A stretch of 25,879 bases of DNA, taken from the IMG/VR virus record IMGVR_UViG_3300027653_000051, positions 1-25,879 of that record; one strand, written 5' to 3'. The notes under the pieces were generated by a model. The model was not told the origin of the DNA. It saw only the letters and a program-made list of their open reading frames with translations, and did not search any database. This document shows, in pieces, positions 67 through 23,059 of this stretch. Source of the stretch: a virus. Taxonomy: Duplodnaviria > Caudoviricetes. Numbering within the stretch: position 1 is the stretch's first letter; the number at the start of each line of letters is the position of its first letter. The translations under genes and the position numbers were made by a program.

Positions 67-891
67 TTAATTAGTAGCTCGCTTGTGGATCATTATATCG
101 GTATAGGACGAATTGTAATTGATAGAATTTGAAGTAGTTGTCATCACTGCACCACTGAACGGATTTCCTGCATAAGTTCGCGTTTCTATCCACTCACACA
201 ACTCAACGATTTGAGACTTATTGGAAGTGAAGTAGAAGTAATTCGAACCGTTCAATACGTCTAAAACGTCCAAATAATCACGAAGCTTCCAATACGAATC
301 ACTATTGTACGTTTTAGTGTCGGTCGATAGATAGGGTGGATCAACTAAAAAAACTACACCCTCAAGCTCTTTAAAGTCGTTAAAAACACACCTATAATCG
401 CCCTGAATTCGCTCAACACCTGATAAGTATCCGTCAGCATTATAGTCTGCTTTTCTCATCACGTTGTAAAAGGTTTGACACTCCAGCTGCTCAAAATTCA
501 TCATGTACTTGCCAGAAAACAATATATTCGCTGAAAGCGTTACATAATCCACCCACGGTTCTGATGCAATTATATCTAACATCTGTTGCCTGATGGATTC
601 CTTGACCTTCTTATCCCTTGGCTCATTTTCAAGCAATGGACGCAATTTTGACAATAATGCATTCGTCTCCGGAATACGTTTTAAACGAGTTTTAAAATCA
701 TCAAAATCATTCCAAACAACCCGCGCGGACGGGTACAATTGCTTGACTGTATGGCTTAATAAGCCAGAGCCACCAAACAAATCCACGAAAACAGCATCTT
801 CCGGGTACCCTTTTAATGCTTCAATAAACTTCTTTAAAAATCGCCGTTTTTGACCCTGAAACGGCAAAGGTGATTGATTATACTTTTTCAT
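67..891 (-). CDS. DNA adenine methyltransferase (D12-class/Dam-like; resembles Hin1523/Nma1821 Mu-prophage methylases)
   Basis: N-terminal PLPFQGQKRRF, SAM-binding VDLFGGSG, WNDFD and catalytic VDPPY motifs; terminal position in the phage. Confidence 0.9.
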   Translation of the reverse strand: MKKYNQSPLPFQGQKRRFLKKFIEALKGYPEDAVFVDLFGGSGLLSHTVKQLYPSARVVWNDFDDFKTRLKRIPETNALLSKLRPLLENEPRDKKVKESIRQQMLDIIASEPWVDYVTLSANILFSGKYMMNFEQLECQTFYNVMRKADYNADGYLSGVERIQGDYRCVFNDFKELEGVVFLVDPPYLSTDTKTYNSDSYWKLRDYLDVLDVLNGSNYFYFTSNKSQIVELCEWIETRTYAGNPFSGAVMTTTSNSINYNSSYTDIMIHKRATN

Positions 892-1138: not shown

Positions 1139-1783
1139 CTAAACATTCAAATTAAACTTCGTTCTATTCCCATTGAGCAACTCTTTGGTCGCTTCTATAT
1201 TATTCTTGTAAATATGCACATTGCCCAAAAACAATGTGATTGAGCGCAATGGCACATCTATTTGTCTACTGATTAAATACAAATGGTAGATGTCCGCAGG
1301 AAGTCCTAAACTTGCATCTGAGCTACGCTGATAAGCAGAGATGACAAGCTTACCTCTATCTATCTGAAATTGAATGAGCGAAAGGCACGGCTGTTGATTG
1401 CTCTCGACATCTGTACGACCGAGAAATAATACATAATTCTTTGAATTGCGCTTCTCTTTGTTGATTTTCTTAATTAAGTCCGGGAGTTGCTCAAAATATG
1501 TCGGGTAGGAATTAACCAGAATAGAACCGCAGTAATCCCACCAATCAATTCCATTTTCTTTATAAGTCTCCACCAATCGTTCACCTTTCTGAAACAGCTC
1601 CAACTCGGTTTTTAGCTTATTCCGAGCCACACCATGCGTTTCAAAGATTTCTAACAAATCAGCTGGCTTCAGCCGCAACACTTCATCTGTCAAATAAACA
1701 ATACTTCCCTTCTTGTTTACCTGAGTTTTTCCTTTGTTTAGGATTTTACCTAAAATCTCGTGATACTTATTCTTCATTTTCAT
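1139..1783 (-). CDS. Divergent thymidylate-synthase-family protein (possible dCMP methyl/hydroxymethyltransferase)
   Basis: Catalytic PC motif (QPCLSLIQF), YQRSSD-LGLP and NVHIY motifs. Start moved from TTG 1846 to ATG 1783 (or 1777), which has an A-rich context. Confidence 0.85.
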   Translation of the reverse strand: MKMKNKYHEILGKILNKGKTQVNKKGSIVYLTDEVLRLKPADLLEIFETHGVARNKLKTELELFQKGERLVETYKENGIDWWDYCGSILVNSYPTYFEQLPDLIKKINKEKRNSKNYVLFLGRTDVESNQQPCLSLIQFQIDRGKLVISAYQRSSDASLGLPADIYHLYLISRQIDVPLRSITLFLGNVHIYKNNIEATKELLNGNRTKFNLNV

Positions 1784-1793
1784 TATATTTGCA
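1784..1793 (+). promoter_or_regulatory. Candidate -7 promoter element for an antisense RNA
   Basis: TATATTTGCA pointing into the structured leader; no clear -33 TTTG found. Confidence 0.45.
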
Positions 1794-1930
1794 CCTCTCA
1801 CGGTATTAAATACAAAACCCACAATCAGAAGACTTATGTCCTCCAACTGTGGGCTTTGTGCTTAATTAAAAATACCGTGAGAAGTTTTTTAATTTGTTGG
1901 AGGACTTTTTAACCGCTCCAACTCGGTTTT
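1794..1930. ncRNA. Structured leader of the TS-like gene and/or antisense small RNA
   Basis: Inverted repeats 1796-1807/1871-1882 (12 bp), 1812-1823/1848-1859, 1838-1847/1896-1905 (10 bp) and 1911-1915/1924-1928; stem mismatches read as G-U pairs on the minus strand. Confidence 0.65.
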
Positions 1931-1977
1931 AATTACTTTTTAAATCGATTTTAAACGCCTTTTAAATGTCTTTTAAA
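1927..1977. repeat. Phased TTTTAA(A) array with 11-bp period
   Basis: Copies start at 1927, 1938, 1949, 1960 and 1971. Confidence 0.8.
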
Positions 1978-2518
1978 GTTTTACCCGTCGGCGGAACATA
2001 CCGAACCGCCAAGCGAGCAAAACAAACAAAATGACAAACAAAATGACAAATGCTATTGTTATATATCCACCAACTTGTAAACCGGTAGATTCTTTCTCAA
2101 CATCTTTCGATTTCTCAAAAGATTTTAATCGTTTTTCTAAATTGGAATAAGCCGTCCAAAGCGAATCAAACTTCGATTGATATTCAAACTCAAACTGCTC
2201 GTGTTCCTGGACTACCTCCTCCGATGCCTTGACTTTTCCTTTGCCTTCTGCTCCAGCTTCCCATCCATGCTCGGTTTTGTTCATATAGAATCGAAAACCG
2301 TCTGAAACATCACCGTCATAATCGATTGACCAGTTTGACAAGAATCTACTGAAGTCAAATGAAGTGATCCCAGAAGCTTCTGTTTCGCTCGATACCTGCG
2401 AACTATCGAACGTAGTCGACACATCCTCGACCTCGCTCTTTCTGCTCTCAACCGATTTCTTCTTTGTCGCACAGCCGACCAATAACATGGCCGTTAATAT
2501 GATTACTTTCCAATCCAT
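1973..2518 (-). CDS. Lipoprotein, probable unimolecular spanin
   Basis: Lipobox LLVG-C at the N-terminus, C-terminal transmembrane helix followed by RRR, directly downstream of the endolysin. Confidence 0.75.
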   Translation of the reverse strand: MDWKVIILTAMLLVGCATKKKSVESRKSEVEDVSTTFDSSQVSSETEASGITSFDFSRFLSNWSIDYDGDVSDGFRFYMNKTEHGWEAGAEGKGKVKASEEVVQEHEQFEFEYQSKFDSLWTAYSNLEKRLKSFEKSKDVEKESTGLQVGGYITIAFVILFVILFVLLAWRFGMFRRRVKL

Positions 2519-3072
2519 TTCTTCGCTTCTTTTTCTAAACTAATGTTATAAGGCTCGCGCTTCAATCGTCGCGCCAACGCCTGATAGCCTGACCCATTAT
2601 ACTTCACGGCGATCATGTGCCAATTACGAGTTCTAACGGCGCTTAAAAGCGTGGAATCGGTAAGGATGAAACGAACCAATGCACACAACTGCTGGTATTC
2701 GCCACGCTTGAAATCATCCCACATAGCGCCAACATTGGCGTAACCAAGGCGCTTCCAGTGAAAACCCATAATTTGTGGCAAACCGATGCTTGTTGCCTGC
2801 ATTGCTGCATCTGGATTGATTGCAAAAGCATCATTGAATGCCAGCCATTCCCGGGATTGCACATCTACTTTGTTTTGTGACCACACACCAGGGCGTGCAC
2901 CAGGAGCTAATTTTCTAAACCAACTCGGCTCAAATTGGATTAAAAGCTTCCCTGTTTTCTTGTCAAATCCATAGCCTGGAGTTTCCACTTTCACGATGGC
3001 CATAAGGACGTCAAAGGGCAAGTTATTGACCTTTGCTAATTCGCGGATTGTATTGATGTTTTCTGTTTTCAT
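2503..3072 (-). CDS. Endolysin, N-acetylmuramidase (DUF3380-like)
   Basis: AIVKVET, IQFEPSWF, ATSIGLPQIMGFHW and YNGSGY motifs; ATG 3072 overlaps the upstream stop as TGATG. Confidence 0.88.
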   Translation of the reverse strand: MKTENINTIRELAKVNNLPFDVLMAIVKVETPGYGFDKKTGKLLIQFEPSWFRKLAPGARPGVWSQNKVDVQSREWLAFNDAFAINPDAAMQATSIGLPQIMGFHWKRLGYANVGAMWDDFKRGEYQQLCALVRFILTDSTLLSAVRTRNWHMIAVKYNGSGYQALARRLKREPYNISLEKEAKKWIGK

Positions 3073-3878
3073 CACCAAATAACAAGTTTTGCACCCTCAG
3101 GTATTGTTAAGTTAATATCAACAGCAAGTCTCAATTGCCATTGAGCACCACCAATTGGTGGTCTTCTTAATTCTGTTGTGCTTAACACGTGTCTGCCGTA
3201 TGTATCTTTTAGACTAAATTTTCTATATGCCTGTCCAGGTCCTATTTCCTCCCATACTATATCCCAATGTGTACCTTGCATGAATGCTTGGCCGTTATCC
3301 CATGCTAATACTGGCAGAGCACCTGGTGTGAGTTCTATTGTTCTAATTACATTAGGTGTAAGGTCTATTTGATACGCTGTGATATCAAAGACCTTCTTCC
3401 ATCCCAAATAATTAACAGCTTCACCTTCTAAGTCTCTAACACCAACAACTTTTGTGGATTTTTCTAAATGCACAACCTCTAAACTTGTAGGAGGAGTCTT
3501 TAAATTTTTAAAGTCTAACTCAAACACTCGGAAAATCCCCCCAGAATCGCCAACGTCATACAGAGAGAACATTGTTCCTTTATTATGCTTTTGTATAAAT
3601 ATTTTATTAGGAACATTAGGGTAACCTCCAGTTTGTCCGTCATTATACCCATCTACTCCAATAGCTACATCGAATATCTTCCTGCCCGCTATATTTTGTG
3701 TAGATGTTAGATCTACATATCCTTCAACTTTTAAAGGAACCGCGTCACGTGTTGGGGTATTAGCAATCGCATACACTTCCATTCCAGTGGCTGTGCGAAT
3801 GAAATAGATTCCATTAACATCCCTATCCTGCGCTGCAGGTAATGCCGTCAATGCGTATGGTGTGAATTTATCTGCCAT
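3072..3878 (-). CDS. Tail-fibre-associated/receptor-binding protein (putative)
   Basis: VDLTSTQNIAGRKIF fibre repeat; N-terminus paralogous to the upstream gene; position in the fibre cluster. Confidence 0.6.
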   Translation of the reverse strand: MADKFTPYALTALPAAQDRDVNGIYFIRTATGMEVYAIANTPTRDAVPLKVEGYVDLTSTQNIAGRKIFDVAIGVDGYNDGQTGGYPNVPNKIFIQKHNKGTMFSLYDVGDSGGIFRVFELDFKNLKTPPTSLEVVHLEKSTKVVGVRDLEGEAVNYLGWKKVFDITAYQIDLTPNVIRTIELTPGALPVLAWDNGQAFMQGTHWDIVWEEIGPGQAYRKFSLKDTYGRHVLSTTELRRPPIGGAQWQLRLAVDINLTIPEGAKLVIW

Positions 3879-9224: not shown

Positions 9225-9430
9225 GTCAAATTTCCTCCAAATGTTCCTGTAACTGGCCCCGCAGAAGTCGTCAAACCCGATACGTAATTGATCTGTGCTT
9301 CTTTGATTTCGTCTATCAATGCAACTGCAAGTCTATCGGAAAATTCATCAATCGAATCCACTTCACGCTCCATCATGTCGTTCATTATTTCGACTATATT
9401 TCCTTTTAATCTATTTTTATCTAAAGCCAT
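9221..9430 (-). CDS. Small hypothetical baseplate-region protein
   Basis: Tightly coupled 69-aa ORF ending GPVTGTFGG. Confidence 0.7.
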   Translation of the reverse strand: MALDKNRLKGNIVEIMNDMMEREVDSIDEFSDRLAVALIDEIKEAQINYVSGLTTSAGPVTGTFGGNLT

Positions 9431-9934
9431 TTAAATCTGTTTTAAAATCGTTTTAAAAGCCGTTTCAAAATTCTCAATTGCCAAAATCGAGTCCGGTAAT
9501 GGTGTACCACTTGGACCAACTGGCGTGTGCACCTTCAAATTCTTCAAAATCGATTGAAGCTGATCAAATAGTTCATAAATTCCAGTACTCGAATTCTTCG
9601 CTCCGATTTTCGAAGATTTCAAATCGATTTCCATTTCGAAATCTCCGTTTTTAGCAATTACTTTATCGATCTGATCGCATTTGATCACTGCTAAATTGTC
9701 AATCGATCCATCCGTTGAGATCATCATTACATTTGTTCCAATCGTTGGAATTAAAAGCAAGGTTTGAGCATCGTTCGCTGTCGCCTTCAATTTGACATCG
9801 CTCAATTCGATATCGTCAACCTTCACCGTGCAAGTGTCGGTTTGAGTAGATACCACGGTTCCGGACAAAATCACTCTTTCATCCATCCTGACTGTTTCCA
9901 GCAATCGCCTTTTCAATTCCGCCACTCTATCCAT
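9431..9934 (-). CDS. Baseplate spike (gpV/Mu gp45-like)
   Basis: OB-fold-like GTVVS..TCTV...P.IGT.V N-terminus and VHTPVGPSGTP tip motif; follows the hub gene. Confidence 0.65.
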   Translation of the reverse strand: MDRVAELKRRLLETVRMDERVILSGTVVSTQTDTCTVKVDDIELSDVKLKATANDAQTLLLIPTIGTNVMMISTDGSIDNLAVIKCDQIDKVIAKNGDFEMEIDLKSSKIGAKNSSTGIYELFDQLQSILKNLKVHTPVGPSGTPLPDSILAIENFETAFKTILKQI

Positions 9935-22240: not shown

Positions 22241-23059
22241 TTGCATACACGGCTGAACAATATATATGCGTGCAATTGCGAAGATTGCAAGACGAAAACG
22301 ATTCATCTTGCAGCAGATTCTAACGGCTTTTTTAAAGACGTTTTAAACGCTGCTAAAAATGCTTTAAAATACCTTTTAACGAAACAGACTTTTAAAGAAG
22401 AAGACTTGGGCGAAGAGCCTTATCAGAGGCTAATAGATGAAACATATAAGGTGTTTAACAAGGCAATAATGGATAACGACGTGCCCGATGTGATGCGTAA
22501 AGCTTTGCAATCGGATGCCTTCCTTTTTGGAACGCTAAAAACCCGAGCGCAAATGTTCGAAGCTTCAACCTATTTATTGAATCCGGACGGAACGATAAAG
22601 ACCTGGCAACAATTCGAGCGAGATTTTAGGCAGGTTTTTGAAGATTACAACCAAAATTATTTGGAAGCGGAATATCAGTTTGCGGTGAATAGCGCTCAAA
22701 TGGCGGCTAAATGGACGGAGCTCGACGATTCTGGTAGATATCTACTTCAATACAGAACGGCAATGGACGATAGAGTGAGAGAATCGCATCAAGCATTGGA
22801 AGGAATCACACTTCCAAAGGACGATCCTTTTTGGCGTGATTTCTATCCACCCAATGGATGGCGCTGCCGTTGCCAAGTCGTGGAAGTAAGCAAAGCGAGA
22901 TATGAAGCTTCTGAATCTGAAGAAGCAATCGCAAAAGGAATGGCCGCTACACAGCAGATAGGTAAAGATGGTCGAAATCGCTTGGCTATGTTTAGGTTCA
23001 ATCCTGGTATGGAAAAAAAATTGTTTCCACCGGATCATCCATATACAAAAATCAAGTGA
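22241..23059 (+). CDS. Mu gpF-like minor head protein (frame is open back to the slippery site at 22178)
   Basis: LQYRTA.D.RVR.SH..L.G.TLP.DDPFW....PPNGWRCRC motif. Confidence 0.9.
   Translation: MHTRLNNIYACNCEDCKTKTIHLAADSNGFFKDVLNAAKNALKYLLTKQTFKEEDLGEEPYQRLIDETYKVFNKAIMDNDVPDVMRKALQSDAFLFGTLKTRAQMFEASTYLLNPDGTIKTWQQFERDFRQVFEDYNQNYLEAEYQFAVNSAQMAAKWTELDDSGRYLLQYRTAMDDRVRESHQALEGITLPKDDPFWRDFYPPNGWRCRCQVVEVSKARYEASESEEAIAKGMAATQQIGKDGRNRLAMFRFNPGMEKKLFPPDHPYTKIK

Follow-up and report, generated by a model that had tools for sequence, protein, structure and literature searches.

A conserved, covarying RNA element ahead of phage DNA-modification cassettes and its possible control by antisense RNA

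A transposable phage has to keep its DNA-modifying genes silent as a lysogen and express them before packaging. Mu relies on proteins for this. The cytotoxic mom gene, a late DNA-modification gene at the genome end, is silenced until late by several layers of control, and an opposing promoter is part of the arrangement (PMC3378877). The antisense-RNA transcription attenuators of plasmid pT181 and of Shigella RnaG/icsA share alternative antiterminator and terminator folds, a convergent promoter in the leader and complementary hairpin loops (PMC3753616, PMC2879508). In Bacteroides, DonS-type cis-antisense RNAs of 78–128 nucleotides (nt) lower the expression of the opposite gene (PMC7366714). How Bacteroidota phages control their DNA-modifying genes is not described in the literature we searched. 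In this work, we analysed a 25,879-nt stretch of viral DNA (IMG/VR record IMGVR_UViG_3300027653_000051, hereafter the window), in which a structured element at 1794–1930 lies on the minus strand ahead of a thymidylate synthase-like (TS-like) gene. An earlier note on this DNA had described it as an RNA switch in the leader of that gene. We show that the element belongs to a conserved, covarying family of probable regulatory RNAs with no Rfam match, and that it heads whichever gene opens a swappable cassette at the genome end; it is not a TS leader. By our best reading, which we put at about an even chance, it would be a form of antisense-controlled attenuation and an RNA-based analogue of Mu mom control.

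Two alternative folds had been proposed for the minus (mRNA) strand, and every pairing quoted for them is present in the sequence. Fold B is a long hairpin (1794–1884) built from an outer stem (1871–1884/1794–1807), an inner stem (1848–1859/1812–1823) and an apical helix (1838–1847/1824–1833, segments 3 and 4) with the loop AUAA. It ends 9–10 nt ahead of the ATG at 1783 and 15–16 nt ahead of a second in-frame ATG (1777). In fold A, segment 2 (GUCCUCCAAC, 1896–1905, minus strand) pairs with segment 3 around the hairpin P2b (1864–1894; arms 1886–1894 and 1864–1872). The loop of P2b exposes the 5' arm of the outer stem and is predicted to form a kissing loop on both strands. The minus strand of region 1780–1940 folds at -65.3 kcal/mol (z -10.25) and the plus strand at -45.5 kcal/mol (z -4.91), and none of 200 shuffles was as stable in either case. 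For a transcript ending just past 1838, fold A is the minimum-energy fold (-27.0 kcal/mol, z -4.43, 1/200 shuffles).

Beyond these folds we found a hairpin P0 (1911–1928), a terminator-like U-tract and a plus-strand TAnnTTTG box (1784–1791). P0 (AACCG/CGGUU, minus strand) bears in its loop segment 1 (GUUGGAG, 1922–1916), which can also pair with 1896–1902, and segment 1 is predicted to be the anti-antiterminator partner of segment 2. Between P0 and segment 2 lies an A-linker (1906–1910), which reads as a U-run on the antisense strand. The inner stem and apical helix, followed by UUUUGUAUUU, make up a predicted intrinsic terminator of the incoming late transcript (1808–1858, minus strand); the inner hairpin was the longest match in a terminator scan, and the terminator-like U-tract lies past the inner stem. 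Folding of truncated transcripts predicts three successive states: P0 with fold A (-27.0 kcal/mol), then three hairpins (-47.7 kcal/mol; segment 1/2, P2b and the terminator), then the long hairpin (-65.3 kcal/mol).

The family was sampled by protein and by pattern. From 588 loci, 80 TS-like loci were kept, chosen by the TS-like protein only; the leader lies directly ahead of the TS-like gene in some of them, and a methylase or a small gene is directly upstream of it in others. A pattern scan gave 119 viral loci, of which 95 passed the A-linker filter and two more were removed by hand. Further pattern scans gave 86 genome loci, mostly Flavobacteriales; for a GCCCCC variant, the yield was 112 and 120 viral loci. 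We removed two badly bounded rows, rows more than 85% identical, and matches that had no promoter-like box or lay too near an edge (10/195, 12/112 and 5/120), which left 98 and 86 members. Some of the removed matches are unrelated look-alikes, and others are true members whose end is variant or cut off. The pattern-anchored counts below use 171 members, with 13 TS-selected rows excluded, and paired figures refer to the two sets of 85 and 86. A methylase-based locus scan found nothing.

With a covariance model built from 73 rows, 77 of the 80 TS-protein-selected loci showed a single copy on the same strand, always ahead of the first cassette gene; roughly one in four of these loci, themselves or as close copies, had served to train the model. 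The copies lie at four distances, matching four gene orders. The model matched all 44 variant Bacteroidales loci, including hankyphage, and none of four look-alike controls. In hankyphage, a common gut phage, the element lies between the avd gene and a small gene, a thyA-like gene and a methylase, and the cassette ends the record. With 150 candidates scored per genome, all five host genomes carried 1–2 copies, and we rejected a genome-wide repeat.

In alignment A1, both sides change in 11 of the 15 pairs of fold A and in 16 of the 20 pairs of fold B, and none of 500 shuffles reached either value. Slid controls were lower for fold A; for fold B, 92.7% of cells were paired, compared with 42–54% in slid controls. 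The rows are related, and these counts are not probabilities; in most rows the cores of segments 2–4 were fixed by the search pattern, and information comes from the pairs left free, those of the outer stem among them. The end of the segment 2/3 helix carries a covarying G-C/A-U pair (38/34 in 73 rows), and RNAalifold chose this helix unaided. Because MAFFT aligns the inner stem and P2b poorly, we analysed them per sequence. P2b is present in 85/85 and 84/86 members and a P0-type hairpin in 75/85 and 68/86, with a GGAG/GGGG-type loop in 56 and 37. At least six A within the 8 nt before segment 2 were found in 81/85 and 86/86 members (most search patterns required five), and at least five U in the best 8-nt window after a G-C pair of the inner stem in 85/85 and 67/86. 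The probability of fold A exceeds 0.5 for 87/98 early transcripts and for none of the 98 full-length ones. The proposed RNA-level function and alternative folds are supported, the folds with covariation in both.

The gene that follows the element changes from member to member. By motif rules, the first gene in 178 members was an 80-aa PHROG 17790 protein (62), a D12 methylase (35), a TS-like gene (27, a count inflated by the TS-based selection), a 42-aa open reading frame (ORF; 15), a Dam-type gene (13), Mom (4), a C5 methylase (3) or another gene (19). The cassettes include TS-like genes, D12/Dam, C5 or N6/N4 methylases, Mom and a small regulator. The 80-aa protein is annotated as a Mor-domain protein in three GenBank records. 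By gene content, the small toxic membrane peptide that a type I toxin–antitoxin locus would have opposite its antisense RNA is not seen: the first genes are mostly enzymes or regulator-like, and the 42-aa ORF heads a module of ABC ATPase and GNAT genes.

The most conserved sequence outside the helices is TAnnTTTG on the opposite strand, the Bacteroidota -7 promoter consensus (PMC7366714). In the window this box (TATATTTG, 1784–1791, plus strand) points into the hairpin, and its -33 site is a weak GTG (1760–1762). The exact box is present in 169 of the 171 members kept by a looser box filter (raw passes 185/195, 100/112 and 115/120) and begins -2 to +6 nt from the outer stem end in 169/171, against a background of 21 in 49,232 positions. 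A -33 TTG peaks at spacers of 19–20 (49/170, versus 0–10 at other positions from 10 to 30), and box and peak agree with the published consensus (PMC7366714); our sigma-70 scan does not cover Bacteroidota promoters. The start codon lies at a median of 35 and 27 nt from the stem, and within 12 nt in 2 of the 165 members with an ORF. The motif is therefore tied to the hairpin and not to translation, and the predicted RNA would begin at the first stem pairs. From the promoter position and the strand of the G-U pairs, we predict a cis-antisense RNA of about 115 nt (1795–1910, plus strand). Its 5' end, estimated from the box, would lie at the base of the outer stem, and its 3' end at the U-run past the helix 1838–1847/1896–1905. 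The mRNA side is likely read-through, because a sense-strand TAnnTTTG box lies upstream in 7/184 members and a same-strand reading frame ends at most 260 nt upstream in 146/151. A group of Bacteroidales members (L033–L076) has a sense TAnnTTTG-like box (e.g., TACCTTTG) after the 80-aa gene, which suggests that the TS-like and methylase genes are additionally controlled at the promoter level.

We also compared contigs from 7 of the 22 runs that contain a hankyphage-type member (L403, element at about 1961–2150). The element is spanned by a single contig in two of them, the RNA run X1 and the run X19, whose kind is not recorded. The contigs of four other studies break within it or at its edge, at 2025 (X14 and X15, one study), 2033 (X16), 2111 (X17) and 1971/2014 (X18). 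The X17 break coincides with the end of a U8 run, and the breaks do not coincide across studies. Contigs show no strand, end or level, and we did not count them as evidence.

The earlier note read the stem mismatches as G-U on the mRNA strand and took this to favour RNA-level function. This holds for fold B in the window, with 7 G-U in 40 pairs on the mRNA strand versus 1 in 33 on the other. For fold A, the family as a whole shows the opposite. In ten variant leaders registered by hand, segment 2/3 has nine A-C and no G-U pairs in the mRNA frame beside 81 Watson–Crick pairs; at positions 0–8 of 86 Bacteroidales members there are 65 A-C, no G-U and one other mismatch. These A-C mismatches are G-U pairs on the antisense strand, where a U-run follows. 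The internal mismatches of P2b in the mRNA frame are A-C rather than G-U as well (37 vs 2 and 33 vs 7), which is above or near the 3.7:1 and 2.8:1 that composition alone predicts. In both sets, the apical segment 3/4 helix, which leads into the U-tract, retains its G-U pairs on the side of the mRNA, and P0 leans to the same strand (24 vs 14 and 43 vs 18). Both strands thus appear to be under structural selection, and a purely mRNA-borne function would no longer fit.

The element is an RNA structured on both strands, conserved between the late tail/lysis genes and the modification cassette of Bacteroidota Mu-like phages, with an opposing promoter motif. In our likeliest reading, held at about even odds, it attenuates transcription under the control of an antisense RNA, so that the cassette would stay off during lysogeny and early infection. 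The cassette would be reached by read-through from the late operon. The nascent mRNA would first make P0 and fold A (segment 2/3 and P2b), so that segment 3 is hidden and the terminator delayed. From the box at the hairpin base, host RNA polymerase would make an antisense RNA of about 115–130 nt that ends at the U-run past its own segment 3'/2' helix. This RNA would meet the P2b loop and segment 2 of the mRNA, both transcribed first, and fold A would fail. Segment 3 would then pair with segment 4 and transcription would stop at the U-tract, with segment 1 assisting by taking segment 2. Late in infection, abundant read-through would outnumber the antisense RNA and cross its promoter; fold A would persist and the modification genes would be expressed. 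In favour of this reading, segment 3 pairs downstream in 166/171 members at the U-tract and segment 2 pairs upstream in 147/171. We assign the polarity, in which the antisense RNA means OFF, because the promoter looks constitutive and because Mu must silence mom (PMC3378877). A wider version is more tentative, and we regard it as possible but rather less than probable: a phylum-wide, uncatalogued two-strand switch whose two RNAs, the antisense RNA and the mRNA, are encoded by one DNA stretch and would each be bistable, with the G-U pairs divided between the strands. It would be a universal gate of all the interchangeable modification cassettes of Bacteroidota transposable phages that replaces Com, OxyR and C control.

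Several points weigh against the attenuator. At the U-tract, fold A exceeds a probability of 0.5 in 4/171 members. The terminator fold beats fold A there even without antisense RNA, by a median of 15.7 and 10.6 kcal/mol; therefore read-through must rest on kinetics or on a protein. Since the terminator stem, too, is complementary to the antisense RNA, a full duplex would block the terminator and not promote it. Tuning of the segment 2/3 helix to the antisense strand makes it a less convincing antiterminator on the mRNA. In the long stems, the Flavobacteriales-type set favours the mRNA strand (G-U 77 vs A-C 15) and the Bacteroidales set the antisense strand (A-C 100 vs G-U 13), and part of the A-C excess falls at a helix end (position 8) or at pattern-fixed positions in related members. 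The -33 site in the window is weak. The antisense transcript, the termination site and the regulatory effect are all predicted.

The terminator fold that wins at equilibrium without antisense RNA would suit another mode of silencing. The antisense RNA, being complementary to the whole element, could silence leaky read-through mainly after or apart from termination: the full duplex would be cut by a double-strand nuclease, the antisense promoter would interfere with oncoming polymerases, and the terminator would be a fixed attenuator that gives a low base level. Convergent interference has been shown for RnaG/icsA (PMC2879508). This explains the conserved P0 loop and the segment 1/2 pairing on the mRNA less well than a switch does, and we consider it unlikely, although it deserves weight. 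The help that read-through needs against a favoured terminator might instead come from a late phage protein that binds P0 or fold A and causes antitermination, with the antisense RNA as a decoy or second layer. The GGAG/GGGG loop is displayed in many members and a small regulator-like gene comes next in 62/178. However, the loop sequences vary, a CsrA match was found in 0/5 host genomes in a search that detected its positive control, and a Com zinc-ribbon match in 0/5 phage records (two at least 90% complete, plus hankyphage) in a search without a positive control. We rejected a CsrA site, and a protein of this kind seems to us quite improbable.

Seen from the plus strand alone, a promoter, a closed 5' end and a U-tail make a tidy RNA gene, and most helices of the Bacteroidales set are tuned for that strand. 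A small RNA with its own trans role, which on the mRNA would leave only a two-way terminator and no switch, is nevertheless a long shot: it is on the mRNA strand that P0 and the G-U pairs of segment 3/4 have been retained, the element heads the cassette in 77/80 loci, and there is no conserved second target. The window does contain a 20-nt direct repeat with one mismatch between the TS-like coding region (1593–1612) and P0 (1911–1930), perhaps a local duplication. As a family feature or second target it was rejected: it was found in 1/136 members, the next best repeat was 17 nt, and 300 cross-pair controls gave at most 15. The riboswitch-like or translational gate on the TS-like gene that had first been proposed now has very little left to recommend it. 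Its alternative folds are real, and in the window the stem does end 9–10 nt ahead of the first ATG; across the family, start codons rarely lie so close to the stem. The SD/anti-SD (Shine–Dalgarno) reading of GGAGG/CCUCC fails since no conserved start codon follows and the phylum does not use such sites, Bacteroidetes being without classical SD sequences (PMC7366714). There is no conserved unpaired core for a metabolite either. The 11 invariant columns of A1 all lie in segments 2–4 or the promoter box (in a set largely pattern-selected for those segments), and the downstream genes (TS-like, three methylase classes, Mom, ABC ATPase/GNAT and the small regulator) are unrelated and use different cofactors.

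The earlier note could not assign the element to a named Rfam family, and no family matched it here. Rfam 15 gave no match at E up to 1 over it in the window or in 14 further loci, and in 20 more loci only weak miRNA-model matches far below the cut-off, which overlap the element in two. Away from the element, a FopS/GibS-like match below the cut-off (L304:2989–3086) and RT-3 and RT-17 matches above it (L306:36–171) were seen. We found no paper describing the element in the literature searched (titles and beginnings of abstracts, with few subscription journals). In the accessible text of the hankyphage paper (PMC12135933), "antisense" occurs once, to say how a gene is oriented. A "D12-methyl RNA motif" was found neither by literature search nor in the main text of PMC5737381. 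The closest candidates stand in the rows of PMC8040213. HMP2_1881 is from Bacteroidales, 108 nt long, with 142 instances and Mu F, GNAT, ABC ATPase, D12 methylase and thyA as neighbours; HMP2_1560, also from Bacteroidales, neighbours DUF1320 and a D12 methylase. Compared by description only, these rows differ in that they give no promoter, antisense or switch model. Among 13 of the 14 D12-linked rows of that source, these two may be this element or part of it. Five D12-linked candidates from PMC10690425 are 49–85 nt long; four have Firmicutes or Proteobacteria hosts, and for one the host is not stated.

The source record is a 25.9-kb virus with a completeness estimate of 51%, and a Mu-type portal (Portal_Mu), terminase, tail and lysis genes are present. 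On one side of the element the last late gene ends (minus strand, stop at 1973); on the other lies the TS-like gene, with the D12 methylase beyond it near the record end. The end of the tail/lysis operon (1973–3078, minus strand) comprises a muramidase (2503–3078) and a 181-aa ORF (1973–2518), and its transcript probably runs into the element. The first cassette gene (1139–1783, minus strand) encodes the 214-aa TS-like protein (Pfam PF00303, E 9e-22), which keeps the PC and QRSxD motifs and has GLPAD in place of ThyA GVPFN (Asp for Asn). In TS-family enzymes an Asp here would mark a cytosine nucleotide as substrate, and a DNA-modification role of the protein is probable. Its hankyphage homologues, 70% identical, carry the annotation thyA. 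The second cassette gene (67–891, minus strand) encodes a 274-aa D12-class adenine methyltransferase (Pfam PF02086, E 4.5e-6; PHROG 56).

Some further observations concern the surroundings. A plus-strand TAnnTTTG box (896–903) lies at the methylase start codon, ahead of a 72-aa plus-strand ORF (920–1138) inserted between the TS-like and methylase genes, whose stop adjoins the TS-like stop. This ORF matched no Pfam or PHROG family, with hypothetical look-alikes only, below 0.9. TTTAAA recurs at 11-nt spacing at several gene boundaries (1939–1977, 9430–9457 and 22331–22368), and phased TTTAAA-like runs precede the element in a minority of members; such runs are possible bent DNA or protein sites. 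Two TTGTACA copies in 1–66, past the methylase stop and near the record end, are possibly transposase-binding sites of the phage right end. In L092, L122, L159 and L082, the same cassette slot is occupied by the 42-aa ORF (PHROG 28816 in L156) with an ABC ATPase-like gene and then a GNAT-like frame behind it. The ABC ATPase-like gene follows it in all four loci inspected, and the module is likely an uncharacterised DNA-modification module.

The element offers one testable answer to how such varied cassettes, with Mom, methylases or a TS-like enzyme, are controlled, and hankyphage in B. thetaiotaomicron is a culturable system. It also marks the location of unknown DNA-modification genes, and Bacteroidota genetics might adopt it as an RNA part for controlling expression.

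Set beside the known systems, the locus shares with pT181 and RnaG, at the sequence level, an opposing promoter placed to transcribe the leader and mutually exclusive antiterminator and terminator folds, which are predicted and covary. It differs from them in having no sequence or Rfam link, in lying between cistrons and not at a promoter-proximal 5' end, and in its phage DNA-modification targets. The antisense RNA here would also cover the terminator stem, which, to our knowledge, that of pT181 does not. DonS-type RNAs belong to the same phylum and promoter type, but they act on host susC genes (PMC7366714), and no Rfam match to them lies at the element. As in Mu, a late DNA-modification gene stands at the end of a transposable phage, and four members precede a Pfam Mom gene. 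The option of antisense control and the analogy with Mu Com/mom, both raised by the earlier note, are supported. In Mu, translation is what Com acts on, and the promoter momP2 is divergent and overlapping (PMC3378877); the opposing promoter here would instead drive transcription across the 120 nt of a structured element, and this element leaves the start codon uncovered.
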